This document shows, in pieces, positions 5,307-26,916 of a stretch of 34,893 nt of DNA. The notes under the pieces are model-generated. The model saw nothing but the letters and a program-made list of their open reading frames with translations, did not search any database and was not told where the DNA came from. The translations under genes and the position numbers were made by a program. The stretch comes from Nitrososphaerota archaeon (lineage in GTDB: Archaea; Thermoproteota; EX4484-205; JAAOZO01). Positions within the stretch are counted from its first letter, which is position 1; each line of letters opens with the position of its first letter. The stretch lies in assembly GCA_011605715.1 (NCBI GenBank), contig JAAOZO010000171.1, positions 1 through 34,893 of the forward strand, read 5' to 3'.

Positions 5307-6222
5307 AGAAGTTAGCAAGACAATATCTTGGTTAGAAGTTTCATTTAAGGTTCCATCTGATTGGGAATTAGTTGCTGACTCTGGAGGTATAACTGAAGCC
5401 TACATGAGAATAGATAGTCCTAGTAGTGTAAAGTTGGAGATTAAGTGGGAGCGAGTTAAGAAGAAAGTATCTGATTTCTTCCCATACTTAACTTTAGACA
5501 ACTACATTAAGTCGATAACGAAGGATTCTAAGCAAAAAGTTAATCCAAAAATCCTAGAAAAAGGAAACGCTAAAGTAAATGAACACAAAGCTGCTTTTTA
5601 CAGGTGGCAGTTCGGTTCTTCCAATTTTGTAACTCTCTCTTGGGTGTGTGAGCCAGAAAGCAAGATCTTTTTGCTACAGTATACTCTCGACGAGGGTGAA
5701 GATAAATCAAGTATACTCCCTGAAATAGTGAAAAGTGTTTCATGCCATAACAAAGAAAGCTTTTATCCATTTGAAATATTTGATGTCTCGTTTGCAATTC
5801 CTAAAGAATTCCATCTCTCAAGGAGAAAATTAGCAATTGGAAAGGCTGAGCTTTACTTTTTAAGTCAGGATTCTAAAATTCTAGTTACGTGGGTCGGTTT
5901 AGCAAACTATCAAATTAAGAAGTATGGTTTTCTTGGAAAGGCAGTATCAAACTTAATGTCTGAAGCAGTAAAAGCATGCGATAATGACTTTTCTTCTTTG
6001 TTAAAAGCGATAAAACCAACAGACAACTTCATATCTCTTGAAAAAACAAATCATCCCTCTTTACCAATTCTAGGAAAAGCTACGTTTCTTTCGTTGGATG
6101 CGAAGCTTGATGAGCTTTCCAATAAAATATTCCTAGTTGCTTTTAAAACAAGTAGTCTCGAGAAAAGGGAGGTTGGAAGAAAAGTTTTTGTCAGTCTTAA
6201 GGGTAAACCAGAAGTGGAATAA
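5299..6222 (+). CDS. Hypothetical protein with an internal two-domain duplication
   Basis: 307 aa. The ATG overlaps the upstream stop by 8 nt, suggesting an operon. Two by-eye repeats begin LEVSFKVPSDWEL...KLEIKW and FDVSFAIPKEFHL...KILVTW. Confidence 0.6.
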   Translation: MNKEVSKTISWLEVSFKVPSDWELVADSGGITEAYMRIDSPSSVKLEIKWERVKKKVSDFFPYLTLDNYIKSITKDSKQKVNPKILEKGNAKVNEHKAAFYRWQFGSSNFVTLSWVCEPESKIFLLQYTLDEGEDKSSILPEIVKSVSCHNKESFYPFEIFDVSFAIPKEFHLSRRKLAIGKAELYFLSQDSKILVTWVGLANYQIKKYGFLGKAVSNLMSEAVKACDNDFSSLLKAIKPTDNFISLEKTNHPSLPILGKATFLSLDAKLDELSNKIFLVAFKTSSLEKREVGRKVFVSLKGKPEVE

Positions 6223-6277
6223 GCTTTTAAATTCCATACAAAGCTTTAATAAAAGTTAGGTAGGGATCGATAGCACT

Positions 6278-6814
6278 ATGTGGCCTTTCAAGAAAAAAGA
6301 AAAGACGATTTCAAGAGAAAGGTTTTTGAACGCTATACCCGTAAAAAACCCTATCATTAAATGGGAGACTTCGGATGACAACACAGTAACTCTCATAATT
6401 CCTAGAAATCCAGATACAGTTTCAACTTTTGTACAAAAGATGCTTACTATTCCAAGTGAAAAGAAAATAAAGCTAGATGAAATAGGGAGTAAAGTTTGGC
6501 TAAAAGTAGATGGGAAATCTAATATGCAGGATCTAATAAAATGGTTTTCAGAAGAATTTCGAGTTGCGCAAAGAGAAGCAGAAGTTTCTTTGAGCTTATT
6601 TTTCAAAGAACTTTCGAAAAGAGGCTTTTTAACGTTGCTTGTCCCATTACCAAAGCCTGGGACTCTTGAGGCAAAGGAAGAGATAGAAGAACTAAAATCA
6701 CAGCTAAAGAGTCTTGAAAAGGAATTTAAAAAAGGGAAATTAAACGAGGAACAGTTTAACCAAATAAAGAAAACTCTAGAAGAAAAAATAGAATACTTAA
6801 AAGGTACGTCATAG
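6278..6814 (+). CDS. PqqD-family (RRE-like) domain protein with a C-terminal SHOCT-like coiled coil
   Basis: 178 aa. KLDEIGSKVWLKVDGKSNMQDLIKWFSEEFRVAQREAEVSLSLFFKELSKRGFL fits the PqqD pattern. The C-terminal LKSLEKEFKKGKLNEEQFNQIKKTL fits the SHOCT pattern. Confidence 0.65.
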   Translation: MWPFKKKEKTISRERFLNAIPVKNPIIKWETSDDNTVTLIIPRNPDTVSTFVQKMLTIPSEKKIKLDEIGSKVWLKVDGKSNMQDLIKWFSEEFRVAQREAEVSLSLFFKELSKRGFLTLLVPLPKPGTLEAKEEIEELKSQLKSLEKEFKKGKLNEEQFNQIKKTLEEKIEYLKGTS

Positions 6815-8529: not shown

Positions 8530-8651
8530 TGCGGCGAGTGCGGCTTCCGCTGACCAAGTGGTCATGTGCGGGATTTGAACCCGCGATTGCCAGCTTTCTC
8601 CGTTGCTTCCCATGGAAGGCTGGAGTCCTAACCAGACTAGACCAACGCCGC
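8530..8651 (-). tRNA. tRNA-Gly (anticodon UCC) with two introns: canonical 37/38 (17 nt, 8596-8612) and non-canonical at the T-stem/acceptor junction (about 30 nt, 8537-8566)
   Basis: Hand fold on the minus strand: acceptor GCGGCGT/ACGCCGC, D stem GTCT/GGAC with an AGTCTGGTTA loop, anticodon stem CCAGC/GCTGG, loop CTTCCA..A, T arm GCGGG-TTCAAAT-CCCGC. Intron 1 pairs with the anticodon (CTTCC/GGAAG). The 122-nt gene reduces to a 75-nt mature tRNA. Confidence 0.85.
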
Positions 8652-18109: not shown

Positions 18110-18922
18110 ATGGAGAAATTAGAATGTCTAGAGAATGACAGCAGCAATACTTTCTATACCGAAGAGAAAGAATTAGATAATTCTGTTTTTTCTTTCAATG
18201 ACCTCTCTTCTCATCACCTTCTGTCCCAGTACGACGTAGATGAGAAAATACGCCAATACACCCGTTTATTACTTGAAAAATTAAACTTACCTTTATCTAT
18301 GGACCTTGCTATATTTAAAACGTATTTAGAAATAAAGAAGAGCTTGCCTAAGAATAATGTAAACTCAGTAGCCTTACTGGCCTCACTGGTCGTCTTATAT
18401 TCAAAGTTTTACAACTACCCAAAAAACATAAGTGAGGTGATGGAAATAGTTAAAGATTTTGACCCAAAAATTAAAAAAGGACGTATCCTCAAATATATGT
18501 ATCTTATAAAATCTATCAATAAATCGTTTAACAATTATGTATGTCCAGTCTCTTTTATTGATATGATAATGAACAGACTTGAAGATAGAGGACTGATTTT
18601 TGTTAACCCTATGTCAAAGAAATTTGATTACAAAAGATCATTAATCTTAATCTCAAGCTACCTATTAAGCAAGCTAAAAGATAAAAATATAAGTAGTAAT
18701 CCGAGAGGCATTGCTGCTTGTTCAATTTATACTTCTAACATATTGATTGCAAAATATAAGATTTTTAAATGTAAACGCCTAACTCAAAAACATTTAGCTA
18801 TTGCTTCTAATTTAGCTGAATACACAATAAGGGAGAACTACGAAAAACATTTTTCTATGTTTGTGAAGAATCCTCCAGAAGATTTACTATTACATCTTTC
18901 TCTCCTTCTGTCTCAGAACTAA
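18110..18922 (+). CDS. Divergent TFB (TFIIB) paralog: two cyclin-like repeats, no N-terminal zinc ribbon or B-reader
   Basis: 270 aa. The second repeat PRGIAACSIYTSNILIA....LTQKHLAIASNLAEYTIRENYEKH matches the TFB core signature (P.GiAAAaiY.A....TQ.e.a....VtE.TIRnRYkE). The first repeat has SVALLASLVVLYSKFYNYPKNISEVMEIV. There is no CxxC...CxxC. Confidence 0.75.
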   Translation: MEKLECLENDSSNTFYTEEKELDNSVFSFNDLSSHHLLSQYDVDEKIRQYTRLLLEKLNLPLSMDLAIFKTYLEIKKSLPKNNVNSVALLASLVVLYSKFYNYPKNISEVMEIVKDFDPKIKKGRILKYMYLIKSINKSFNNYVCPVSFIDMIMNRLEDRGLIFVNPMSKKFDYKRSLILISSYLLSKLKDKNISSNPRGIAACSIYTSNILIAKYKIFKCKRLTQKHLAIASNLAEYTIRENYEKHFSMFVKNPPEDLLLHLSLLLSQN

Positions 18923-19319
18923 TGTAGAAGTATTGCTCTACCACTGTGATATTTATTTTATACTTTACCTGCATCATATAAGTTTCGTTACTCACCTTTA
19001 TGCTATTTATGCTAAATACATAGGTCACTCGAGTATCGTTCTTTGAAAACTTGTTTGCTACCTTATTAAAGATATCACCTACTATAGCCTGTAACTCAGA
19101 AGATTTTATCGTCTTGTTTTCAATCGAACCTATTTCTTCTTTTATCTCCCTGTCTGCACTTTGTTCATTATTTGAAACTTCATTCGTTTTTTCATTGAAT
19201 TTCTTTATGATATCAATACTTTTAAAAATGTTAGTAGCTTCTTTTACTACAAGTAGCACGATTAAAGCGTACAAAAAAGTAAATACAGTTAATGCAGGTA
19301 CAATGCCTAAAGGCTTCAT
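18855..19319 (-). CDS. N-terminally anchored (pilin-like or signal-anchor) protein, last gene of the peptidase operon
   Basis: 154 aa. MKPLG-IVPALTVFTFLYALIVLLVV hydrophobic N-terminus, then a polar, beta-rich region. The 3' end overlaps the convergent TFB-like gene by 68 nt. Confidence 0.6.
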   Translation of the reverse strand: MKPLGIVPALTVFTFLYALIVLLVVKEATNIFKSIDIIKKFNEKTNEVSNNEQSADREIKEEIGSIENKTIKSSELQAIVGDIFNKVANKFSKNDTRVTYVFSINSIKVSNETYMMQVKYKINITVVEQYFYISSETEGEKDVIVNLLEDSSQT

Positions 19320-19331
19320 TTTGCTAAGTCT

Positions 19332-19427
19332 TCAAAGTAAGATATATCCTCTTACGATGTGTTCCAAGATGAATAAAGTCAGCCACATTATCAAAGTTGC
19401 CAAACTCACATCTATCTCTTCATACAT
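19332..19427 (-). CDS. 31-aa hydrophobic sORF, a truncated paralog of the N-terminus of the 113-aa protein
   Basis: Not in the supplied track. MYEEIDVSLATLIMWLTLFILEHIVRGYILL resembles MEEIEFIGSILAWFLLCTTIGVLEMKLV (19580-19921 product). It packs tightly between neighbours. Confidence 0.4.
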   Translation of the reverse strand: MYEEIDVSLATLIMWLTLFILEHIVRGYILL

Positions 19428-19443
19428 TTTCTCACCTACTTGT

Positions 19444-19596
19444 TCATATACCTACAACCCTCTTTATAAGCTCCCCTAAAATTCTGTTTACCTCATAGTT
19501 AACCATCATGAGTCCAACCAAGTAAAATGAAAGTATTAGAACTGAAAATCCAATTTCAAGAATTCCTAGCTTACCCTTTTTAAAACTTCCTATCAA
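19444..19596 (-). CDS. 50-aa Flp-like pilin candidate (TTG start)
   Basis: Not in the supplied track. With TTG 19596: MIGSFKKGKLGILEIGFSVLILSFYLVGLMMVNYEVNRILGELIKRVVGI. It has a basic N-terminus, an L-E-I-G-F motif and a hydrophobic helix. It overlaps the upstream gene's 3' end by 17 nt. The only in-frame ATG (19509) would remove the hydrophobic segment. Confidence 0.5.
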   Translation of the reverse strand: MIGSFKKGKLGILEIGFSVLILSFYLVGLMMVNYEVNRILGELIKRVVGI

Positions 19597-19921
19597 GGAT
19601 AACTCCCTGTTCACTTATAGACACATTTACACTTCTATCAAAGAGAACAGTAACATTTTCGTAAAAAGGAGCACTTATTTGAATAGCTGACTCATTTATT
19701 TTTTCTATTTTAATAACTTCTGACCCAATTTTTGGCAGATTTATCCTGAATTCTACTTTTTTGTTTGCTCTTGTGATATAATTGATTTTTTCAAATAAAA
19801 TCTTTATCGTCTCTACTTCCTTTTTTTCATATGTAGAAACTAATTTCATTTCAAGAACTCCAATGGTCGTGCACAACAAAAACCATGCTAAGATTGAGCC
19901 AATAAACTCAATCTCTTCCAT
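19580..19921 (-). CDS. Pilin-like protein: hydrophobic N-terminal helix plus a beta-rich domain
   Basis: 113 aa. MEEIEFIGSILAWFLLCTTIGVL, then alternating beta-type sequence (VEFRINLPKIGSEVIKIEKI...VTVLFDRSVNVSI). Confidence 0.6.
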   Translation of the reverse strand: MEEIEFIGSILAWFLLCTTIGVLEMKLVSTYEKKEVETIKILFEKINYITRANKKVEFRINLPKIGSEVIKIEKINESAIQISAPFYENVTVLFDRSVNVSISEQGVILDRKF

Positions 19922-19927
19922 TTTTCA

Positions 19928-20086
19928 CTACCTTCCTAAAATTAATTTGTTTAAACTTACTTTAGCAAAAAGTTCTCCAAGTATTTTAACGATTTGAGAA
20001 AAATTTTTTGCAAAGAAATAAAGTATTAATGCTGAAATTAATCCTTCAATCATCATCGTCATCATCTTCTCCAATATCCTGCTCAT
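19928..20086 (-). CDS. 52-aa Flp-like pilin candidate
   Basis: Not in the supplied track. MSRILEKMMTMMIEGLISALILYFFAKNFSQIVKILGELFAKVSLNKLILGR. It shares I-E-G-L plus a hydrophobic helix plus ILGEL with the 19444-19596 product. It lies 5 nt after the peptidase gene and 6 nt before the next gene. Confidence 0.55.
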   Translation of the reverse strand: MSRILEKMMTMMIEGLISALILYFFAKNFSQIVKILGELFAKVSLNKLILGR

Positions 20087-20091
20087 TTTTC

Positions 20092-20682
20092 CTACAAAAA
20101 CATAGTATGTGAAAGGCTAGTTATAAGCACCAATGTTCCAAATAATGGAATAAACGGCACGTCAGACTTTTTTGATTTAACTTTTGGGAAAATTAGTGTA
20201 AAACTCCAAGTAAACGGAAGGGCAAATGTAACAATTTTAACAAGCCTTTTACTACTAGTTTTATTCTGCAGTTTTCTTAGGAAATGGATTCTAAGCAAGA
20301 GCGTGTACGTGTTCACATAAATTGGTTCTATTAGGCTAGTATCAAATTGTAAGTTCGTGGGAAATAAGCCCAACATTAGTCTTACCTTAAAAATACCTAC
20401 GCTTACTGGTTGTATAATTGCTAATGAAAACATGAAATCTGCAAATCCAGAATATCCAAGTATAAATTGAATACCTGAAATCAATGCAACCTTTAAAATA
20501 GAAAGTAAGTAGTCGAAAGTATTCTCCAATAAAATGCCTTTTATGAGTACGAGTATCAGACTTAATATAAAAAATATCACTAAAAAAATTGCAGAAACTT
20601 CTCTGTCTCTTATGTCTTCGTAGCTCATTATTATCCAAAGCAGTACCCAAATGAAAAGTAGTCCTTTTTCCAGCAACAACAT
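20092..20682 (-). CDS. Peptidase A24-family prepilin/preflagellin peptidase-like membrane protein (PibD/FlaK/TadV type)
   Basis: 196 aa, polytopic. MSYEDIRDREVS fits the first catalytic-Asp motif (y.D...r.vp). LGYSGFADFMFSL is a plausible second G-x-x-D motif. Confidence 0.7.
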   Translation of the reverse strand: MLLLEKGLLFIWVLLWIIMSYEDIRDREVSAIFLVIFFILSLILVLIKGILLENTFDYLLSILKVALISGIQFILGYSGFADFMFSLAIIQPVSVGIFKVRLMLGLFPTNLQFDTSLIEPIYVNTYTLLLRIHFLRKLQNKTSSKRLVKIVTFALPFTWSFTLIFPKVKSKKSDVPFIPLFGTLVLITSLSHTMFL

Positions 20683-20750
20683 TTTTATCCTTTTTACAAG
20701 TTTTATTTGTCCTTATAAAGGCCCACAGAGAGCTTTAAATTAGAATAAAA
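20683..20750. promoter_or_regulatory. Compact divergent promoter region between the two pilus-like operons
   Basis: 68-nt AT-rich spacer with TATA-like elements facing both ways (ccTTATAAAgg, cTTTAAATTag) at a suitable distance from both start codons. Confidence 0.4.
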
Positions 20751-20906
20751 ATGAAGCATGAGGATGCTATAATAGATGCTATAATAGACGAGATTTCAAA
20801 TTTAAAGAATGAGTTATCCATAGTAAAAAGAAGGCTTGATCTGTTACAAGGTTACATAATGAAATCTAAAGAGACTTCTCTAAATTCAGAAGAAGCTAAA
20901 AAATGA
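20751..20906 (+). CDS. 51-aa coiled-coil protein translationally coupled to the secretion ATPase
   Basis: Not in the supplied track. MKHEDAIIDAIIDEISNLKNELSIVKRRLDLLQGYIMKSKETSLNSEEAKK. ATGA overlap with the next gene. Confidence 0.5.
   Translation: MKHEDAIIDAIIDEISNLKNELSIVKRRLDLLQGYIMKSKETSLNSEEAKK
20763..20788 (+). repeat. Perfect 12-nt tandem duplication (gatgctataata x2, plus ga) inside the small coiled-coil ORF
   Basis: Read directly from the sequence. It encodes DAII-DAII. Confidence 0.9.
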
Positions 20907-22618
20907 GAATCAAAGAAATAAGAAGGTTTAAGAACCATTTATTAATTACTGTGCATGATAACTTTAATGAAAGTCTCGTAGATGAAATTCTTAACTATGT
21001 GATCTTTTATATGCGTTTTTTCAGGAATATAAGTTCTGTTGATGTAAAGTTTAATAATTACGAAGAAACTATAGTTGACAAAGCAATTTTATCTAAATGT
21101 TTAAATAAGGCGCGTCAAATTTCAAAGCTTGTTAAGACAATAGCGTTAAGATATAGAAGCAAACTCGAAGGTATTGACCTAAGTTATTTGTCAGTCTATC
21201 CGAATTTCGGTGAGCTTTATAACTTAAATAAGAATCCTAAGCAAGAAGTTCTTCTTGCTAACTCAAATTTTAGTATGGATTATGCTTGCAATGAAACTAT
21301 TGAGATTCCGAGCAGATTATACCACTTAGACGCTGTTTTAAAAGGTGGTGTGTACCACATCAAGTATAAAGATATTTTTGTAAAGAATATTTTGCTTGAT
21401 ACTTCGTATTTTCTTAGATGGGTTGTTGATGATCGTCTTCTTGAACCAAATAAGTTTAGTGATTTCATCGAATATAGGTATAAGTTTGCCATAAGGTATC
21501 TAAACAAAACCATCCAAAATCTTTCTACTCAATTAATTAGAAGTATAGCGATTCATTCTGTTTTTGTTTCAATGGGTTTACCTTCCCTTTTTCCCCTCTT
21601 TTTAGATAAAAGTATCAACGAAATCTACCTTGATGACTTAGGAAAGACGGTATATGTTGAGCATGCTGATTATGGAAGGTTGCCTACTAATATCAAACCA
21701 AGGGATAAGGAAGTTAGAGCTCTTCTTTCAGCCCTAAGAAGGAACAGTGGCCAAGAGTTAAGTCTTTCAAATCCTTCTATTAAGGGTGATCTCTCGTTTT
21801 ATAATTCTATTTTAAGAGTTTCTTTCGATTCTTTTCCTCTAGTTAACAACTTCTCCTTTGACATAAGAAAGTTGAGCAAAGAGTCAAAAAACTTATCAAG
21901 TCTTGTTCAAAGTGGTACCCTAGATAAAGTAACGGCATCTTTCCTTGTGAATTTGTTGAGAATTCGTGCCAACATTTCTATAGTTGGAGAGCCTGGAAGT
22001 GGCAAAACGACGTTACTTGCTTCAATTTTGAATTTTGTCCCCAAAAACTGGAGAGTCATAATTTTAGAGGATGTTCCGGAGATTTCTTACTCTTTCTCTG
22101 GGTCAAATTTTTGTTTAAAGCTATTTACTGATCCTTTTGAGTCTAAGACTAAAGTAAGAAAAAAGTCAGAAGAAATAGTTAAGCTACTTCACAGGAATCC
22201 AACTTATGTAGTTCTTGGTGAGTTACAGTACGAAGACCACTTCAAGTCTCTTTTTTATGCTTTATCTTCAGGGTTAAGAGTTATTCATACTTCTCACGCG
22301 CCAAGTATCGCTGGATTCATTGATAGAGTGGTAAATGTTTACAAAATTTCTAGTTCTTTAGTCTCATACCTTGATGTTGTTTTAGAAATGAAGAAAATAG
22401 AAAATGACGGTAAGGTTATACGAAGATTAAATTCTATCGGTTTTGTGAATATTTCAAGTACAGATCCTTATGAACTAAAAGTTGTAAACTTAAATAACAA
22501 TAATTCAGATACTCTAGAAGGTATTTACCAGAATTGGATCAAAATGATATTAGTAAAGAGGAACGAAACTAACTACATTAATAATTTTTGTTTTTTGCAA
22601 AATAGTGAGCTATCTTGA
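20903..22618 (+). CDS. Type II/IV secretion-family ATPase (FlaI/TadA/PilB/VirB11-like) with a long divergent N-terminal region
   Basis: 571 aa. Walker A VGEPGSGKTTLL, Asp box VIILEDVPEI, Walker B PTYVVLGELQYED, His box RVIHTSHAPS. The first roughly 350 aa have no motif I recognise. Confidence 0.8.
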   Translation: MRIKEIRRFKNHLLITVHDNFNESLVDEILNYVIFYMRFFRNISSVDVKFNNYEETIVDKAILSKCLNKARQISKLVKTIALRYRSKLEGIDLSYLSVYPNFGELYNLNKNPKQEVLLANSNFSMDYACNETIEIPSRLYHLDAVLKGGVYHIKYKDIFVKNILLDTSYFLRWVVDDRLLEPNKFSDFIEYRYKFAIRYLNKTIQNLSTQLIRSIAIHSVFVSMGLPSLFPLFLDKSINEIYLDDLGKTVYVEHADYGRLPTNIKPRDKEVRALLSALRRNSGQELSLSNPSIKGDLSFYNSILRVSFDSFPLVNNFSFDIRKLSKESKNLSSLVQSGTLDKVTASFLVNLLRIRANISIVGEPGSGKTTLLASILNFVPKNWRVIILEDVPEISYSFSGSNFCLKLFTDPFESKTKVRKKSEEIVKLLHRNPTYVVLGELQYEDHFKSLFYALSSGLRVIHTSHAPSIAGFIDRVVNVYKISSSLVSYLDVVLEMKKIENDGKVIRRLNSIGFVNISSTDPYELKVVNLNNNNSDTLEGIYQNWIKMILVKRNETNYINNFCFLQNSELS

Positions 22619-23154
22619 AAATAAATAGGCTTATCAACTTAGTACAAGGCTATCTCAAACCTATCTTTGATAAACTGAGTAACAGAAGACTAGGTCTTTC
22701 AACTTTGCAACATACGTTGTATGTATCCTATAGAATAGTTGGCGAAAATGAAATTCATGCAGCTAGACATGTACTAAAGCTTAATGATGAAAGTGCTACA
22801 TATAAAAAATTTATTTATGCTATAGGCTCTGGGCTCGATGCTGATAAATACTTAACATTAGAGCTAAACAAAACAGAGCAATACCTAAAGTTTAAGTCGA
22901 GTATTTATCAAAGGATTTCTTTTATTGAGAGCTATAATAGAAATATGTACCTGAGAAGTGTAGATAGGCTTAAAGTACTTTTAACAATATTTACTTTTTT
23001 ATCATTTATCATACCGTTTGTATTTATTTTTCTCTCTTTCTTTCTCTTCAAGAATTATGTTGACTTTTTATCTTACTTTATCCTACTTTATCCAATTTTT
23101 CTTTCATTTTTTCTTAGGTTAGCAAGAGTTGAAGATAAATATGTCATCAAATAA
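22615..23154 (+). CDS. T2SSF/TadB-like platform protein, first half of a split FlaJ/TadC
   Basis: 179 aa. TTG start in a TTGA overlap with the ATPase stop. A roughly 120-aa helical soluble region followed by two strongly hydrophobic segments. Confidence 0.55.
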   Translation: MKINRLINLVQGYLKPIFDKLSNRRLGLSTLQHTLYVSYRIVGENEIHAARHVLKLNDESATYKKFIYAIGSGLDADKYLTLELNKTEQYLKFKSSIYQRISFIESYNRNMYLRSVDRLKVLLTIFTFLSFIIPFVFIFLSFFLFKNYVDFLSYFILLYPIFLSFFLRLARVEDKYVIK

Positions 23155-23929
23155 GATCTTCGCAACAGTTATTCTTCTGCTATCTTCTGTTGTTGCTCAA
23201 ACTTTACTCAGTGGAAAGAACTTTAACATAGTTATCATCTCTTTCTTTTCGCTCCTTATTTCTTTGTTGTTAAGAAACGAAAGTCCAAAAGTTAACGTTA
23301 AAGATAGAGAAAAACTCCTTGATTACTTTTCAAGCACAATATCTAGAAGTAAAGAAGGACTTTTCCAAGAGGCATCATTTTTTAAAGATTCAAAAAATCA
23401 AAGAATTAAATATCATAAAAAGCTTGTCTACTTGGTTTCGAATGGCTTTCCAATAGAAGATGCTCTTCTGAAGAGTATTTCAGAAAGTAAAGACCCAATT
23501 CTCGTATTCGTATCAGAGCAGTTGCGCTATGGAAGAATAAGCTCTAACGAAGTTGATAAAGTGATTGGGATGTGGCTTGATAACTTAGGCTACATTCATG
23601 AAACTAATAGGCTCTTGTCTGAGTTTGAAAATAGAGTAACACTCTTAAATTACATTCTGTTTGTCTCCTTTGGCTTTATATCAGCATCGCTTAGATCCTT
23701 TGGATCTCTCATAAAAAATTCTGTAAACTATTTATTCTTTAGCAACTTGAGTTATAATATCGATGCAATAACGCTATCTCTTCTCATGTTTTCTATTTCA
23801 ATATTTACTGTTTCTTCATCTTACTTTAATCTAAGTAATAAAACTATTAAGTTTGCTACTTCTTGTTTTTTGTTTTTAGTTTCCTACCTACTTTTTGGAA
23901 TAATCTTCTTTTATGCAGGCAATCTTTGA
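23141..23929 (+). CDS. T2SSF/TadC-like platform protein, second half
   Basis: The ORF opens at TTG 23129; ATG 23141 (MSSNKIF...) overlaps the upstream stop. N-terminal TM hairpin, a cytoplasmic helical domain (LVSNGFPIEDALLKSISESKDPILVFVSEQLRYG, GspF-like) and C-terminal TM segments. Confidence 0.6.
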   Translation: MSSNKIFATVILLLSSVVAQTLLSGKNFNIVIISFFSLLISLLLRNESPKVNVKDREKLLDYFSSTISRSKEGLFQEASFFKDSKNQRIKYHKKLVYLVSNGFPIEDALLKSISESKDPILVFVSEQLRYGRISSNEVDKVIGMWLDNLGYIHETNRLLSEFENRVTLLNYILFVSFGFISASLRSFGSLIKNSVNYLFFSNLSYNIDAITLSLLMFSISIFTVSSSYFNLSNKTIKFATSCFLFLVSYLLFGIIFFYAGNL

Positions 23930-23986
23930 AAATATTGGTGCTTAAATAGCTTTAGGCCTCATTATATTTTGGAGCTGATCGAAAGT

Positions 23987-24172
23987 ATGAAAAAGCTTAG
24001 AGCTTCTCAACTAATAGAAGAAGGTCTCCTAATAGTCCTCGCCTTAGTGATGATAGGTGCTGTCTTCGGAGTATACAAATCCATAATAGACGGGATCTCA
24101 AACTTCTTTAAAAACATAGTAGATAGCATAGGTAAGGTTGCGTACGAGCTGTTTGGTTGGGCGTATCCTTAA
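23987..24172 (+). CDS. Flp-like small pilin (class III-type signal peptide candidate)
   Basis: The ORF opens at TTG 23969; ATG 23987 gives MKKLRASQLIEEGLLIVLALVMIGAVFGVYKS.... The basic leader, then S-Q-L-I-E-E-G-L-L-I, resembles the bacterial Flp G/xTxIEYGLI processing motif. Confidence 0.65.
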   Translation: MKKLRASQLIEEGLLIVLALVMIGAVFGVYKSIIDGISNFFKNIVDSIGKVAYELFGWAYP

Positions 24173-24175
24173 AAA

Positions 24176-25960
24176 TTGAAGATAAAGAATTTCTCTTTAC
24201 CAGAAGATTTTACAGTTGTTTTATCTGCTGCTATTCTTACGCTCGTCTTTGTGTTCAGCAAGTTCCCTCTACTTTTTCAACAAGGGTTCGTCGCATCTTA
24301 TAGGTTTTTATTTTTGTTTATTGTTTTCATTTCTATTTTTTCAGTTTTCTTGATGTACCAATACTTGCATCTAAATAGGTCTAACAGCAATGTAACTTAT
24401 TCTTTGCTAGAAAATGATTTGGTTTTGTTAAAATCTGACTCAAGAAAATACTTCTTGCAGCTATTTAAGTTAGAGTGTCATGACTTAAGTAAACCTAGTC
24501 AATTTGGTCAATTTTTTGATTTTCTTTATAAGTCTGGTATTAGTATAAAGTTAGTTGCAAACATTTACAACCAATCAAATAACTATCGAAATTTCGAAAT
24601 ATTCATACTCGCTTATGAAGAAATTCAAGGTGACTTTAAACAAGATTACATTCCTATAGTTGAAGAGAAATTCAATTCTCTTCTTATCGCTTCTAAAGCT
24701 TACTCCAACGTTATTAGTTTGACTAAACTAGAAGGCTCTTCTCTCTTAAATAGCTTAGACCTATACTTCCTTAACAAAAAAGAAATAAACCATAATTCAG
24801 AAGAAGAACAAAAAAATTCAGGTGAAGTTTTAGCTTCATTGTTTTTACCTTCTCCAAGTAGTGATTTTGTTAATGGCATTTCTTTTATGTCTAAAGAAAA
24901 AGATAGTGAAAGCGGAGTAATTCTCGGAGAGCAAATATATAAAGGAGAACCTTGTGGTACATTTGTCTTGCCAGTTGATTCATTATTCAAGCATTCAGTT
25001 ATAGTTGGAATAACAGGATCTGGTAAGTCAACTACAAATAAGCAAATTTTAAAGGAACTCAGCAGGCTTGGATTTCACTTTTTACTGTTTGATTTTCATG
25101 ATGAGTATGACCAAGAGTTCTCAAACTCCACTTCGTCTTACATTTTTAGATTTTCAGGAGAAGCTTCTATTGACTTTTTATCACCGTTTGAAATGAAAGA
25201 TTTTTCAAATCATGTTTCTATAGTAACTGATGTCTTTAACAACGTATACTCCTTTTCACCATCTCAATTTTTTGTTTTTCGTGATGTTTTATCCTCAGAA
25301 TTAGCTTATTCAAAAATTAATAGGGTTTCACCAACAATGAGAGGCGTAGTAGATAGACTAGAGAATTATGAGCCAAAGTCGTTTTATGAGAATGAGACAA
25401 AATTTTCGTTATTGCGAAGATTAAAGCCCCTAAGTGAAGGCGAAGGTAGTAAAATATTCGCAATTTCTAATTTGATGAAAATTGACAGTATTCTTAACAA
25501 GAATGTAATTTTAAAAGTCTCTGATATAAAAGATTCTGACTTAAGAAAGCTTACAGTTTCTCTTATACTTGCTTTAGTGTATGAGTACAGGCTGACAAAC
25601 GGGCCAGACAAAATTGGACATTTTATTTCTTTAGAGGAAGCCCAAAACTTTGTCCCGTTTAGAAACAGAACAGAAGAAGCTTCAATATATGAAAAAATGT
25701 TTTTTGAAATGAGGAAGTATAGAGAATCTCTTATTTTAATTGCTCAATTCCCTTCTCAGATTTATCCTGACTTGCTTAAGTCTTGTGAAGTTAAGGTTGT
25801 CCATAGGCTTTTTTCAGCTGGGGATGCATCCTTAATTGAAGATATATTGGGAATAGATGAAAAAATACTTGAACAACTTAAATCTTTGCCGGTAGGTCGT
25901 GTTCTCGTTTTTATTCCTTCTAGTAGAAGTCCTATTACCGTTCAGGTACGTAGGGATTAG
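24176..25960 (+). CDS. Membrane-anchored FtsK/HerA-superfamily ATPase (DUF87/HerA-, VirB4/CedB-like)
   Basis: 594 aa. TTG start 3 nt after the pilin stop. Two N-terminal TM segments (VVLSAAILTLVFVF; FLFLFIVFISIFSVFLMY). Walker A HSVIVGITGSGKSTT, HerA-like LLFDFHDEY, Walker B-like HFISLEEAQNFVP, and a LILIAQFPSQI block. Confidence 0.75.
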   Translation: MKIKNFSLPEDFTVVLSAAILTLVFVFSKFPLLFQQGFVASYRFLFLFIVFISIFSVFLMYQYLHLNRSNSNVTYSLLENDLVLLKSDSRKYFLQLFKLECHDLSKPSQFGQFFDFLYKSGISIKLVANIYNQSNNYRNFEIFILAYEEIQGDFKQDYIPIVEEKFNSLLIASKAYSNVISLTKLEGSSLLNSLDLYFLNKKEINHNSEEEQKNSGEVLASLFLPSPSSDFVNGISFMSKEKDSESGVILGEQIYKGEPCGTFVLPVDSLFKHSVIVGITGSGKSTTNKQILKELSRLGFHFLLFDFHDEYDQEFSNSTSSYIFRFSGEASIDFLSPFEMKDFSNHVSIVTDVFNNVYSFSPSQFFVFRDVLSSELAYSKINRVSPTMRGVVDRLENYEPKSFYENETKFSLLRRLKPLSEGEGSKIFAISNLMKIDSILNKNVILKVSDIKDSDLRKLTVSLILALVYEYRLTNGPDKIGHFISLEEAQNFVPFRNRTEEASIYEKMFFEMRKYRESLILIAQFPSQIYPDLLKSCEVKVVHRLFSAGDASLIEDILGIDEKILEQLKSLPVGRVLVFIPSSRSPITVQVRRD

Positions 25961-26192
25961 TTTTACTTTCTGCCAACTTATTTAAAAATTTAATTTTTTT
26001 CTCTAGTTCAACTGCGTTCATTCTTTCCATGCTTATTACATTTTTCTTCGTTACCTTATATCCACAGAAGGGGCAAATTCTATAGTGACTTTTTTCGTTT
26101 ATTCCCATAAACTTGCCACATTTAGGACATTTCACTATGAGAAATTTATCCTTCGACAACTTTAAAAAGCATATTAAGTCGTTGCTTATCAT
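25935..26192 (-). CDS. Small zinc-ribbon protein (DUF1922-like pattern)
   Basis: KFLIVKCPKCGKFMGINEKSHYRICPFCGYKV plus a helical tail. The start is ambiguous: ATG 26192 overlaps the upstream gene by 47 nt, and in-frame TTG or GTG (26135) starts lie nearer its stop. The 3' end overlaps the convergent HerA-like gene by 26 nt. Confidence 0.6.
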   Translation of the reverse strand: MISNDLICFLKLSKDKFLIVKCPKCGKFMGINEKSHYRICPFCGYKVTKKNVISMERMNAVELEKKIKFLNKLAESKTNPYVPER

Positions 26193-26733
26193 TTAAATAT
26201 TTTTTCATCCAATCGATTTTCTTTCCAGGCTTAAATTTATCCTTTATTATACCCTGCGCAATTTTCTTAGGACTTCTATTTGTAGTATCAATTTCGATTA
26301 CATCTCTCTCAAACATTTCATGTGCTTCCTGTGATATTTGATTAAGAAATTCGCTCAGTACATTTTCTTTAGTTTTTTCAATTCCATACTTCTTGAGGAT
26401 CCTCTTATACAATATCAATGGTTCACATCTTAAAACTATTACTCTTTTTGTACCCCCTCGAACTAAGTTTGCTAGCTCATAAGAATGTATCCAATCTACT
26501 GCTATGTTTGTTTGAGTTGTTCTAACTATTTTTTTCACCGTATTTCTCATCTTTTTCACTAAGACAACAAAAGAATCTGTTTTTCTGTCATACCTTGAAT
26601 ACAGTTTCTTGTCTTTTACTAACTTTCCAACGTCTAAATGAGCAAAATTAAACTTTTCTAGTTCTTTACAAAGTGTAGACTTTCCTACTCCTGGCGTACC
26701 ACTTATAAATAATACCTGTTTCTTTTGGGGCAT
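26146..26733 (-). CDS. Fap7/adenylate kinase 6-like NTPase (small-subunit ribosome maturation factor)
   Basis: 195 aa. VLFISGTPGVGKSTLCKEL P-loop, then HLDVGKLVKDKKLYSRYDRKTDSFVV, which parallels the AK6/Fap7 pattern (..NVGDLA.EE.LY.GYDEE.D..I.DE). Confidence 0.75.
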   Translation of the reverse strand: MPQKKQVLFISGTPGVGKSTLCKELEKFNFAHLDVGKLVKDKKLYSRYDRKTDSFVVLVKKMRNTVKKIVRTTQTNIAVDWIHSYELANLVRGGTKRVIVLRCEPLILYKRILKKYGIEKTKENVLSEFLNQISQEAHEMFERDVIEIDTTNRSPKKIAQGIIKDKFKPGKKIDWMKKYLNDKQRLNMLFKVVEG

Positions 26734-26798
26734 TTTAGTTTTGATTTAAAGTACCGGAAAGAAAAATATAAAAGCCTTTACTTCTAGTTTTGGTTCGT

Positions 26799-26916
26799 GC
26801 TCCGGTGATGTAGTCCGGTTATCTTAGGGCCGAAAGCATTCGAGCCTCTCGAAGAGTGCTGAAGAAAGCTCGATACCCGGGTTCAAATCTAAGCGGTGAA
26901 AATCCCGGCCGGAGCA
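26799..26916 (+). tRNA. tRNA-Glu (anticodon CUC) with three introns: D-loop (about 14 nt, 26822-26835), canonical 37/38 (15 nt, 26852-26866) and T-loop/T-stem junction (15 nt, 26889-26903)
   Basis: Hand fold: acceptor GCTCCGG/CCGGAGC, D stem ATGT/GCAT, D loop AGTCCGGTTA, anticodon stem CGAGC/GCTCG with loop CTCTCG..A (CTC at 26848-26850, pairing with intron AGAG), T arm CCGGG-TTCAAAT-[intron]-CCCGG. The 118-nt gene reduces to 74 nt. Exact intron borders are ambiguous by 1-2 nt. Confidence 0.8.

Follow-up and report, generated by a model that had tools for sequence, protein, structure and literature searches.

One locus in an uncultured hot-spring archaeon of the Brockarchaeota, and in its relatives, brings together the genes of a predicted pilus-like machine, a relative of the ATPase CedD and a private TFB paralogue, a combination that has not been described before. 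We analysed it in a window of 34,893 nucleotides, this being the whole stretch of DNA under study. Our preferred reading, offered tentatively, is that an endopilus of Tad/Epd-like kind works together with a CedD-type translocase, probably to take up DNA; the locus may thus be a one-locus DNA-uptake device. The earlier note on this DNA had proposed that filament assembly and substrate translocation are coupled here, a hypothesis that remains plausible. We infer both the physical coupling of the two motors and DNA as the substrate.

Organization and conservation of the locus

An ORF check of the two divergent operons found all 13 ORFs at the positions given in the earlier note. On the minus strand, the gene for a 196-aa protein is followed after 5 nt by the gene for a 52-aa protein and, after a further 6 nt, by that for a 113-aa protein. 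The plus-strand operon has no internal gap: the genes for the 51-aa and 571-aa proteins share an ATGA overlap, those for the 571-aa and 179-aa proteins share a TTGA overlap and, in the window, the gene for a 594-aa protein starts 3 nt after the stop codon of the gene for the small pilin-like protein p67.

The comparison set comprised 21 retrieved GTDB species representatives of Brockarchaeota type together with metagenome contigs. Synteny of the block extends to 20 of these 21 archaeal representatives, with the gene order T2SSE ATPase, two membrane proteins, p67 and CedD-like ATPase retained; the 21st (L017) stops at a contig end. Metagenome contigs L001–L008, L038 and L041 have the same order, and a 22nd GTDB locus, from a bacterium (L031), has only a distant HerA match. 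Wherever a related locus was readable, the two ATPase genes are neighbours as in the window, and conservation of the block is phylum-wide. Among nearer relatives, the small ORFs are conserved at the protein level (tblastn E values of 1e-5 to 1e-78), and in all clades they have positional equivalents. Housekeeping genes flank the locus (Lsm, PAC2, thermosome and ribosomal protein genes), and no mobile-element, viral or defence signatures were found at it. Because the surrounding gene order in Brockarchaeota is conserved as a whole (Lsm, PAC2, beta-CASP, an adenylate-kinase-like gene and thermosome), adjacency within Brockarchaeota alone is weak evidence of a functional link.

Genes related to type IV filaments

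The 571-aa protein (plus strand, 20903–22618) is, as the earlier note had recognized, an ATPase of the FlaI/TadA/VirB11 superfamily (Pfam T2SSE: score 60.8 bits, cut-off 24.9, E = 1.2e-16). Sequence comparison assigns this secretion-type hexameric ATPase to the FlaI/GspE2 branch found in archaeal type IV pili and archaella. Its PDB matches are to FlaI (4ii7, E = 1.7e-24) and A. fulgidus GspE (2oap, E = 2.9e-24) at about 90 bits, compared with E values of about 1e-8 (about 36 bits) for CpaF and VirB11, and a VirB11-type identity was rejected on this difference. Scores against NCBIfam models (FlaI, 99.6 bits; VirB11, 70 bits, E = 1.3e-19; TadA, 68 bits) are all far under the equivalog cut-offs; TrbB is matched at E = 8.8e-16. 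The FlaI equivalog cut-off is 550 bits, in keeping with the earlier view that the locus is not an archaellum, and comparison with the literature found no gene-for-gene match to any named class among the described archaeal pili. The Walker motifs are intact, and the protein has its own N-terminal domain of about 220 aa. Upstream, and ATGA-coupled to it, lies the gene for a 51-aa coiled-coil protein (plus strand, 20751–20906), which is found in 24 of 24 loci and has no family match in profile searches.

The gene for p67 (plus strand, 23969–24172) is the most conserved of the locus, with 53–97% identity, and is more conserved than thermosome; homologues occur in L009, L032, L039 and L040. Alignment of homologues moves its start from position 23969 (67 aa) to the ATG at 23987, giving a product of 61 aa (MKKLRASQ...). 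The class III/Flp-like leader, MKKLRA followed by SQLIEEGLLIVLALVM..., conforms to a family consensus of [KR]-x-[KR]-[GA] and then S-Q-L-I-E5-E, and precedes a single transmembrane helix and a single amphipathic one that ends in LFGW..P. The description of p67 as a Flp-like pilin therefore holds for the N-terminal motif and does not extend to a profile match, as p67 matched no profile or PDB entry. From its sequence, p67 is predicted to be processed and to form a filament.

A candidate processing enzyme is encoded by the first minus-strand gene (20092–20682), the product of which is polytopic, 196 aa long and probably an A24-type (prepilin/class III signal) aspartyl peptidase. Invariant residues in its family are E21-D22 (..YEDIRDREV), D81 (in G.AD, or GFGD in L038) and a VPFIP motif near the C terminus. 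The family consensus has Peptidase_A24 as its sole Pfam match, over the full profile (E = 1.8e-4; score 22.3 bits, cut-off 26.5), the window's own protein reaches E = 0.44 on its own, and the orthologue in L041 has a precomputed Pfam A24 match. The invariant aspartate motifs and the exclusive, if sub-threshold, Pfam matches bear out the original A24-like call. Several Brockarchaeota clades lack the gene at this locus.

Two membrane proteins had been described as T2SSF-like, and this is weakly upheld for the larger. The polytopic 266-aa protein (plus strand, 23129–23929; its true start is probably the ATG at 23141, which gives 262 aa) is a probable T2SSF/TadC-type platform subunit: T2SSF is the sole or top match in its family (E = 0.002–0.05), is all that the family consensus matches in Pfam (E = 0.0097; score 16.3 bits, cut-off 25.2; covering positions 19–123 of the 125 in the profile), is matched by 3 of 11 members and is the top match of the L038 orthologue (E = 0.0022). 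The AF2 model of this protein is unusable (pLDDT of 42). The 179-aa protein (plus strand, 22615–23154), which has a soluble helical N-terminal half and two C-terminal transmembrane helices, does not share the assignment; its family, present in 24 of 24 loci, has no usable profile match (a single member of 11 matches T2SSF, at E = 0.47), and the protein has no PDB match and no similarity to the 266-aa family. Its position makes it a candidate for the first half of the platform.

The five other minus-strand genes encode small membrane or hydrophobic proteins in which no cleavable leader was found, so that a role as minor pilins is speculative. The 52-aa protein (19928–20086) starts MSRILEK, followed by a transmembrane helix, and its MS(S/N)LLEK... 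N terminus is conserved across clades. The leaderless, bitopic 113-aa protein (19580–19921), with the N terminus MEEIEF followed by a transmembrane helix, has no family match; its family occurs in 8 loci, with equivalents of 114–131 aa in all clades. The next gene (19444–19614) exists as reported, yet the proposed length of 50 aa would need an internal TTG start, and a GTG-started product of 56 aa is likelier, its longer N terminus being kept in L001, L010 and L011. This small membrane protein has a basic leader and an N terminus (...KKGK-LGILEIGF...) in which a GILE[IL]G motif resembles QLIEEG of p67; whether it is processed is uncertain because the −1 residue is atypical. The 31-aa hydrophobic peptide (MYEEIDVS...; 19332–19427) has tblastn matches in L001, L010 and L011 (E = 1e-5 to 8e-12), and a 43-aa equivalent (MSDKLLDF...) takes its place in other clades. 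The last gene of the operon (18855–19319) encodes a bitopic 154-aa protein with an N-terminal transmembrane helix and no family match in profile searches; it is conserved in L001, L010 and L011, with equivalents of 145–167 aa (MIKTW...) in all distant clades.

A CedD-like ATPase and a TFB paralogue

The 594-aa protein (plus strand, 24176–25960) had been taken for an FtsK/HerA-superfamily ATPase with two N-terminal transmembrane helices, and both points were confirmed by a Pfam DUF87 match (51.6 bits, E = 1.7e-13) and by an AF2 model (pLDDT of 72.5) with helices at residues 10–29 and 40–66. These helices are followed by an alpha/beta N-domain and a RecA-type ATPase domain in which the Walker A and B motifs are intact, GxTGSGKS and hhhEEAQN being invariant in the family. 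The top Foldseek matches are all HerA (E = 2e-17), and HerA ranks above VirB4 throughout the top 50. The best NCBIfam model for the protein, by a wide margin, is CedD (E = 8e-47; 160 bits against a cut-off of 600, with the match spanning the ATPase domain only), as it is for 8 of 8 family members tested; E values of the family range from 1e-10 to 1e-17 for HerA and from 1e-6 to 1e-10 for VirB4. We therefore classify it by sequence as a membrane-anchored, CedD-like ATPase of the HerA clade, so the comparison with Ced is closer than the earlier note had thought. CedB is the partner of CedD in Sulfolobales; the family has no NCBIfam match to CedB, and no CedB gene is in the locus. Neither S. acidocaldarius nor S. 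islandicus can import DNA without CedD, and in Thermoproteales the Ted DNA-import locus contains the CedD homologue TedD (PMC11823120; bioRxiv 2024.09.27.615246).

Beyond the end of the minus-strand operon, and overlapping the 154-aa gene by 68 nt at its 3′ end, is a 270-aa gene (plus strand, 18110–18922) that the earlier note had left undescribed. Its product belongs, by profile comparison, to the TFIIB family as a divergent TFB paralogue (family profile against human TFIIB, E = 2.6e-16; against the Pyrococcus TFB core, E = 2.4e-13), and the gene is part of the conserved block, at the same position in 24 of 24 loci where this could be read. The N-terminal Zn ribbon is missing in the window's clade only; orthologues in other clades have 306–375 aa, a CxxC...CxxC pattern and weak Pfam Zn_Ribbon_TF/TFIIB matches. 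The 68-nt spacer between the operons (20683–20750; 26% G+C) appears to be a divergent promoter, with a palindromic TATA-like box, CCTTATAAAGG, at 20709–20719, at a distance of 27–37 nt from either start codon. L001, L010 and L011 keep the CCTTATAA core of the box, as do distant clades, in which an inverted repeat and a second TATA-like box come after it. The paralogue may be a dedicated initiation factor for both operons sharing this AT-rich spacer, and would thereby control the locus. A TFB paralogue, TFB3, activates the ups and ced genes of Sulfolobales (PMC11823120).

A proposed machine and alternative readings

In the envelope machine that we propose, which would combine known parts of two kinds, the A24-type peptidase would cut the short basic leader off the 61-aa p67 subunit, and the FlaI-type ATPase, with its 51-aa partner and a platform of the 266-aa and probably the 179-aa protein, would lift p67 from the membrane and stack it into a short filament or endopilus. 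The five small leaderless minus-strand proteins could form its base or tip. The hexameric CedD-type translocase, held by its two-helix anchor and made in step with p67, would then pump a polymer, most likely DNA, through an envelope that the filament has opened or contacted. Sulfolobales divide the work between two loci, Ups for a type IV pilus and the T4SS-derived Ced, and the present arrangement would be a single-locus counterpart; the bacterial pairing of a competence pseudopilus with a membrane translocase offers a possible parallel. Profile searches recognized no CedA/VirB6- or ComEC-like channel protein and no DNA-binding receptor in the locus. Two further features speak against the proposed machine: conservation as strong as that of p67 is not usual in exposed pilins and would better suit an internal component in tight packing, and the housekeeping setting with near-universal retention in related loci could equally mean a constitutive cellular role.

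These features fit a second reading, which we consider possible though doubtful, in which a type IV filament-like membrane device has been repurposed and makes no external filament. Its core, made up of the TFB paralogue, the FlaI-type ATPase, membrane proteins and p67, would be linked to transcription or another housekeeping process, as its core-genome position beside Lsm, PAC2, thermosome and ribosomal protein genes, the extreme conservation of p67 and the leaderless small proteins suggest, and the CedD-like ATPase would have been added as an accessory in this lineage, perhaps as a second motor that extracts or retracts, or as one for handling chromosomal DNA at the membrane. A TFB paralogue is linked to a T2SSE ATPase, in some cases with a p67-like gene, in three Asgard MAGs (L032, L033 and L039) and in a non-Brockarchaeota MAG (L009), the last of which also has an RpoG/Rpb8-like gene and a Cys-rich ATPase N terminus. 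By description, this module of TFB, ATPase and tiny pilin-like protein resembles the orphan subsystem 4D of Thermoproteales, in which an ATPase, a membrane protein, TFIIB and RPB8 occur together and which is possibly related to transcription (PMC4858521; bioRxiv 2026.04.22.720090). No CedD-like gene is immediately next to the module in the three Asgard contigs; it follows that the pilus-type core has its own function, for which DNA is not required. Against this reading, the locus keeps a full filament kit (a peptidase with catalytic aspartates, a subunit with leader and Glu5, a Walker ATPase and a probable platform), and dedicated regulation explains the adjacency of the TFB gene equally well.

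It is improbable that the locus instead encodes a T4SS-derived, Ced/Ted-like DNA-transfer system, with the 571-aa protein as VirB11, the 594-aa protein as VirB4/VirD4, p67 as a VirB2-like pilin and the 179-aa and 266-aa proteins as VirB3/VirB6-like parts of a channel. The NCBIfam VirB11 and TrbB matches, the choice of CedD as best model, weak TraC/VirB4/TraD matches in the 594-aa family and weak Pfam TrwB_AAD_bind and TraG P-loop matches would agree with such an origin, but the 571-aa ATPase is much nearer to FlaI and archaeal GspE, CedB is not matched, and structural similarity favours HerA over VirB4. VirB2-like pilins have two hydrophobic helices and a Sec signal or none; p67 has one such helix and a class III/Flp-type leader, and an A24 peptidase belongs to type IV filaments, not to T4SSs. 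The Ced and Ted pilins are likewise small and helical, but the described Ced and Ted systems lack VirB11 (PMC9905601).

Equally improbable is an accidental neighbourhood, in which a small pilus operon and a stand-alone HerA ATPase for repair, defence or chromosome maintenance are independent of each other and are kept adjacent by synteny in a compact genome: the wholesale conservation of gene order and moderate PADLOC HerA matches (75 bits) would suit it, but no NurA, Mre11, Rad50, SIR2 or DUF4297 partner is present at the locus, and the CedD score is twice that of any defence or repair HerA model. Furthermore, p67 is tightly linked to the CedD-like gene, the two ORFs overlapping or lying 0–5 nt apart in the clades inspected, and the core order (T2SSE, two membrane proteins, p67-like, DUF87) is kept in L040, which has a different base composition (62% G+C) and unrelated flanking genes.

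Locus architecture and the two ATPases

Two divergent operons at window positions 18110-25960, separated by a 68-nt spacer (20683-20750), had been proposed in an earlier note to couple filament assembly to a substrate translocase. ORF calls and the spacer sequence place each of the listed ORFs where that note had put it, with the same overlaps and spacings: on the minus strand a 196-aa candidate A24-type peptidase and five small membrane proteins (52, 113, 56 or 50, 31 and 154 aa), and on the plus strand a 51-aa coiled-coil protein, a 571-aa T2SSE ATPase (NHV06934.1), membrane proteins of 179 and 266 aa, a small pilin-like protein (an ORF of 67 aa, hereafter p67) and a 594-aa CedD-like ATPase. 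The list omitted a 270-aa plus-strand ORF inside the interval (18110-18922), which encodes a TFB paralogue, and some start sites have moved: the pilin-like gene most likely begins at ATG 23987 (61 aa) and the 266-aa gene at ATG 23141, and the '50-aa' protein probably has 56 residues. The family assignments were mostly right, only one of the two T2SSF-like (platform) calls has some support, and the functional idea seems reasonable as a prediction from gene content.

A genome scan identified the relatives of this locus as Candidatus Brockarchaeota, with 21 archaeal species representatives (several so named) at 91% down to 33% identity, and also returned one distant bacterial HerA locus. The window, a complete contig of 34,893 bp from a metagenome-assembled genome (MAG), was deposited as 'Thaumarchaeota/Nitrososphaerota archaeon', yet its closest named relatives are Candidatus Brockarchaeota MAGs, and one 91%-identical locus carries the label 'Nitrososphaera sp.'; the public taxonomy labels look outdated or wrong.

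The T2SSE, p67 and CedD-like genes occur in the same order in every fetched locus with enough flank (tblastn with the window proteins), and an iterated HMM search recovered the 179- and 266-aa membrane proteins, the 51-aa protein and the TFB paralogue in 24 of 24 loci. The best conserved component is p67, with 53-68% identity where the two ATPases have 33-41% and the thermosome 41-52%. Its stop codon lies 3 nt from the CedD-like start codon in the window, and the two genes overlap or leave a gap of a few nucleotides in the other clades inspected. A related locus with 62% G+C and unrelated neighbours (H+-PPase and deoxyhypusine synthase; L040) keeps the whole core, that is, the TFB paralogue, the T2SSE ATPase, two membrane proteins, a p67-like gene and a DUF87 ATPase, and the association is therefore more than inherited synteny. 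The arrangement is real and is conserved far beyond chance.

The 571-aa protein passes the Pfam T2SSE model (60.8 bits, cut-off 24.9), as expected of an assembly ATPase of the PilB/FlaI family. Its closest solved structures in the PDB are Sulfolobus acidocaldarius FlaI (4ii7, E = 1.7e-24) and Archaeoglobus fulgidus GspE (2oap, E = 2.9e-24), with CpaF and VirB11 at just ~1e-8 (37 and 36 bits, against 90 bits for FlaI), and it falls below the cut-off of every NCBIfam equivalog model (FlaI 99.6/550, VirB11 70/250 and TadA 68/373 bits). Because FlaI and GspE are closest and all equivalog cut-offs are far away, the protein is a motor of the archaeal type IV pilus kind and forms a separate subfamily. 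It has a private N-terminal region of ~220 residues. PF27713 ('UCP018868') was considered as a specific marker on this ATPase and discarded, as common CpaF/TadA and FlaI proteins carry it too.

With Pfam DUF87 the 594-aa protein scores 51.6 bits (cut-off 23.2), and the Walker A and B motifs of its family (GxTGSGKS and EEAQN) are invariant. An AF2 model (pLDDT 72.5) has two N-terminal membrane helices, and its top 50 Foldseek matches are almost all HerA, a hexameric translocase (best E = 2e-17; S. solfataricus HerA 4d2i, E = 4e-17); the protein is a membrane-anchored HerA-clade ATPase with a HerA-like fold. CedD is the best curated model both for this protein (E = 8e-47) and for eight of eight family members (best E = 1.4e-56). 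Repair HerA models reach 1e-10 to 1e-17 and VirB4/TraC-type models 1e-6 to 1e-10, the latter in some members only, and CedB (NF041017) matches neither the protein nor its family. The CedD equivalog model NF053655 gives 160 bits against a cut-off of 600, short of a full-length match, and aligns with the ATPase domain only (residues 268-592, model positions 218-526), whereas true CedD proteins from Sulfolobales reach 523-746 bits. For these reasons we class the protein, from its profile matches, as CedD-like and not as a CedD equivalog.

An exhaustive profile search added ~40 clusters (formed at 50% identity) of CedD-like proteins that are 30-39% identical, including one from Methanomethylicia, and a metagenome scan from the non-Brockarchaeota CedD-like alignment, in which the patterns are generic Walker motifs, gave just four weak loci. 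Assignment to the HerA of HerA-NurA repair or to anti-phage HerA was rejected (HerA_Thermprot 40/800 and HerA_antiphage 50/800 bits; PADLOC HerA at most 75 bits), and the locus has no NurA, Mre11, Rad50, SIR2 or DUF4297 partner gene. At one related locus the CedD-like gene is in two pieces (L041, 11431-13291), one of 220 aa for the N-terminal region and one of 393 aa for the ATPase, through either real fission or a frameshift.

Candidate filament parts, TFB paralogue and putative promoter region

The 196-aa family has an invariant Glu-Asp in '..YEDI(K/R)xRxV' (D22), D81 in 'G.AD' (GFGD in the L038 orthologue) and 'VPFIP' near the C terminus. A24 peptidases have two motifs with a catalytic Asp and another at the C terminus, of which these are presumably the counterparts. 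Pfam Peptidase_A24 is the sole match of the family consensus, over its full length (E = 1.8e-4; 22.3 bits, under the 26.5 cut-off). The window protein alone gives E = 0.44, and the L041 orthologue has a precomputed A24 match. The gene is found in some clades only.

For the 266-aa family, T2SSF is the sole or top Pfam match and always sub-threshold (consensus E = 0.0097, 16.3 of 25.2 bits; L038 orthologue E = 0.0022), with three of 11 members matching; the AF2 model, from a shallow alignment, reaches pLDDT 42. Profile searches with the 179-aa family gave nothing usable, and a word-indexed homologue search with the concatenated 179- and 266-aa alignment retrieved seven close relatives only and no bridge to annotated T2SSF proteins. 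As T2SSF is sub-threshold in one family and gives nothing usable in the other, and the 266-aa model failed, a platform role is probable for the 266-aa protein and assigned by position for the 179-aa protein. The idea that the two are TadB/TadC-like duplicates is unsupported, since hhalign finds no similarity between the families.

The p67 sequence (MKKLRA|SQLIEEGLLIVLALVMIGAVFG...LFGWAYP) comprises one hydrophobic and one amphipathic helix behind a conserved, short, basic leader, [KR]x[KR][GA]|SQLIEEGLLIVLALVM, with G or A at -1 and Glu at +5. Leader and helix follow the class III/Flp-type prepilin pattern, and cleavage is predicted. No profile or solved structure matches p67, and PDB profile searches with the 196-, 266- and 179-aa families likewise gave no meaningful match. 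The order of the five small minus-strand proteins is kept across the phylum, and each has a short acidic N terminus followed at once by a membrane helix; a leader was sought at their N termini and none was found. They may be minor pilins or bitopic scaffold proteins.

The family of the 270-aa gene matches TFIIB/TFB structures in the PDB (E = 2.6e-16), and orthologues outside the window's clade are 306-375 aa long and keep the Zn ribbon. Loss of the Zn ribbon and B-reader region is confined to the window's clade (270 aa; compared with L003, L012, L019 and others), and one would not expect a TFB lacking these parts to recruit RNA polymerase as other TFBs do. Within the 68-nt spacer, a palindromic TATA-like box, CCTTATAAAGG (20709-20719), lies 27-37 nt from both start codons. 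Distant clades have a CCTTATAA core, then an inverted repeat (CACCAA...TTGGTG) that is itself conserved; another TATA-like box follows, ~25-30 nt ahead of the first gene on the plus strand. These elements would fit two divergent, regulated operons, with the inverted repeat as a candidate operator. In loci L003, L015 and L018-L030 (for example, L019 5529-5663) the spacer before the 51-aa gene contains a conserved element, GCCTTATAACCGCCAA-N8-10-ATTGGTGAATAAATA, an inverted repeat between two TATA-like boxes; the CCTTATAA part alone survives in the window (20709-20719).

The same divergent TFB paralogue is also found directly beside related T2SSE ATPases in three Asgard MAGs, L032 (Asgardarchaeia), L033 and L039 ('Asgard group'), and in a further non-Brockarchaeota relative, L009. 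It adjoins the ATPase in all loci, including L040 and L041, and of these relatives L009, L032 and L039 also carry a small p67-like gene. According to a recent survey, Asgard archaea largely lack type IV filament loci, except for a few core-only machineries. In L009 an RpoG/Rpb8-like gene (E = 0.006; 6181-6546) precedes the TFB paralogue, and the N terminus of the ATPase is Cys-rich. Very large DUF87 proteins are encoded in L009 (13253-17011, 1252 aa) and L039 (16199-17200, >957 aa), 3.5-7 kb from the T2SSE gene and beside Cdc6/Orc1 and HTH genes; their proximity to the modules is suggestive only.

Known machines and proposed function

Archaeal type IV pili (Ups of Sulfolobales, Aap, Bas and Epd) share with this locus a FlaI/GspE-type ATPase and have counterparts of its probable T2SSF platform, candidate A24-type peptidase and putative class III-signal subunit, and the two genes in platform position and the very short pilin resemble Epd and Tad (PMC6668835). 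Its parts list reads like an Epd/Tad-style type IV filament machine to which a CedD-type translocase gene is tightly joined. Unlike known archaeal pili, the locus has a second, HerA-clade ATPase in the operon, an extremely conserved subunit, leaderless small partners and an adjacent TFB paralogue. It matches no named archaeal pilus class gene for gene, and the archaeal pilus surveys consulted do not mention a HerA-type ATPase as a locus component. We rejected an archaellum, as the earlier note had (FlaI equivalog 99.6 bits against 550; matches to archaellins and Arl accessory proteins, ArlC/D/E, F, G, H and J, absent from every ORF of the locus). Bacterial Tad/Flp (T4c) systems are defined by a CpaF/TadA-type ATPase, TadB and TadC, TadZ, and Flp with G|xxxxEY. 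They too were rejected (CpaF 37 against FlaI 90 bits, TadA 68/373, no TadZ/ParA-like gene, EE in place of EY in the pilin), the likeness being limited to the two platform-position genes and the short pilin.

In 'subclade 4D' of Pyrobaculum and Thermoproteus, too, a TFIIB paralogue shares its neighbourhood with a secretion ATPase and membrane protein(s); these loci are described as an ATPase and a membrane protein with TFIIB and RPB8, no pilin and unknown function (Makarova et al. 2016, PMC4858521), a picture repeated in a 2026 preprint (Sivabalasarma & Albers, bioRxiv 2026.04.22.720090). Neither source mentions a HerA-type ATPase in 4D-type loci, or Brockarchaeota. The RpoG/Rpb8-like gene and Cys-rich ATPase N terminus of L009 add to the likeness. 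Whereas 4D is described as two components without a pilin, the present locus has a leader-bearing pilin-like gene, a CedD-like ATPase, a candidate peptidase and five more small membrane proteins; the 'no pilin' feature does not apply here, since p67 is present. Given their very small size, ORFs of the p67 kind may have escaped notice in 4D loci. What links the two is architecture rather than phylogeny, the arCOG05558 ATPase having been compared by description.

The Ced and Ted systems of Thermoproteota comprise CedA, CedA1, CedA2, CedB and CedD, and TedA-D. CedD is needed for DNA import in Sulfolobales, and its homologue TedD belongs to the Ted DNA-import locus (PMC11823120; bioRxiv 2024.09.27.615246). 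The 594-aa protein resembles them as a membrane-anchored HerA-clade ATPase with CedD as its best profile. The TedD gene sits inside the locus for a filament-forming envelope machine (PMC11823120), as the 594-aa gene does in a filament-machine locus known here from its genes alone, and a TFB paralogue is associated with this locus as TFB3 is with ced and ups. Ced and Ted have VirB2-type pili and no VirB11 (PMC9905601). They also lack the FlaI-type ATPase, candidate A24 peptidase and putative class III-leader subunit of this locus, whereas this locus has no CedB match and no recognizable CedA/VirB6- or CedA1/VirB2-like protein; no Ced- or VirB-named match was obtained among its membrane or small proteins. 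In bacterial competence (a ComG pseudopilus with a ComEC/ComFA translocase) the logic resembles the one proposed here, in which a DNA translocase driven by a membrane ATPase works together with a short type IV filament, and p67 is Flp-like (short, G/A|xxxxE), recalling the subunit of Tad/Flp pili. The translocase parts are not homologous (HerA clade here, ComFA/ComEC there), the assembly ATPase is FlaI-like and not CpaF/TadA-like, and TadZ, a secretin and ComEA are absent.

With CedD and TedD acting in DNA import and a parts list of filament type, pilus-based DNA import is the most economical interpretation. A short type IV filament would cooperate with the membrane-anchored CedD-type translocase in DNA uptake, and the TFB paralogue possibly drives the locus. 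We put forward tentatively, as a plausible proposal, a one-locus pilus-based apparatus for DNA import (or exchange), possibly run by its own TFB paralogue. A broader and more speculative version is that the module is an unrecognized ancient machine of TACK and Asgard archaea, with 4D as its reduced form, in which a tiny Flp-like subunit, nearly invariant in sequence, would be assembled by a FlaI-type motor and platform, with a TFB paralogue dedicated to the machine, and that Brockarchaeota and one or more other lineages recruited a CedD-type translocase to give a one-locus DNA importer. If this doubtful extension holds, archaea would have in this apparatus their own equivalent of bacterial competence pili, beside the T4SS-derived Ced and Ted as another means of DNA import.

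The main rival reading, which we consider rather unlikely, is that a pilus-type core was repurposed for a non-filament, possibly transcription-linked role and that the CedD-like motor is a lineage-specific add-on; in its favour, no CedD-like gene adjoins the Asgard modules, p67 is extremely conserved, and the locus lies among housekeeping genes. A T4SS-type system is improbable: the VirB/D4 type was rejected on the assembly ATPase (VirB11 70/250 bits, 36 bits to solved VirB11) and on VirB4/TraC matches of E = 1e-6 to 1e-10 in some members only, and no VirB2 or VirB6 match occurs at the locus. Mere adjacency of two independent systems, set beside an association that exceeds inherited synteny, is likewise improbable.

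A type IV pilus-type module combined with both a CedD-like ATPase and a TFB paralogue was not found in the literature searched, and the arrangement appears new. Little has been described of DNA uptake and exchange in archaea outside Sulfolobales and Thermoproteales, and the only importers described at the molecular level, Ced and Ted, are conjugation-derived, with pili encoded separately. The locus is a concrete candidate for a second, pilus-based DNA route, and would mean that a motor of the CedD type can go with filaments of either kind. The orphan 'TFIIB-linked' 4D loci gain a fuller relative with a candidate subunit, and the module is extended to Asgard archaea. The very highly conserved 61-aa subunit offers a convenient marker and a good structural target, of interest to the fields of archaeal surface machines and DNA transfer.

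Genomic surroundings

In the window (G+C ~33%), the locus is flanked by housekeeping genes (RadA, TGT, beta-CASP nuclease, L38e, PAC2, Lsm/SmAP, adenylate-kinase-like, thermosome, S17e and ABCE1). With these flanks, and with PADLOC and PHROGs giving generic HerA or terminase-like P-loop matches only, a mobile element, virus or defence system was rejected; the DUF87 proteins in plasmid and phage collections are just 22-25% identical.

An 85-aa C4 zinc-ribbon gene (25935-26192, minus strand) is convergent with the CedD-like gene, with a 3' overlap of 26 nt, and overlaps by 47 nt the upstream adenylate-kinase-like gene (AAA_18, Fap7-like; 26146-26733, minus strand). The pair is kept beside the locus in about half of the related loci. 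Between the adenylate-kinase-like and thermosome genes is a G+C-rich island (26797-26916, plus strand; up to 52% against a 33% background) that reads like a tRNA with at least two introns: it has acceptor halves GCTCCGG...CCGGAGC, a GGGTTCAAATC T-loop split by an insert of ~14 nt and a long insert after the anticodon region. Neither ARAGORN nor Rfam calls this island. Elsewhere in the window, Rfam identifies a 92-nt tRNA (35 bits; 8560-8651, minus strand) that ARAGORN missed and that presumably contains an intron.
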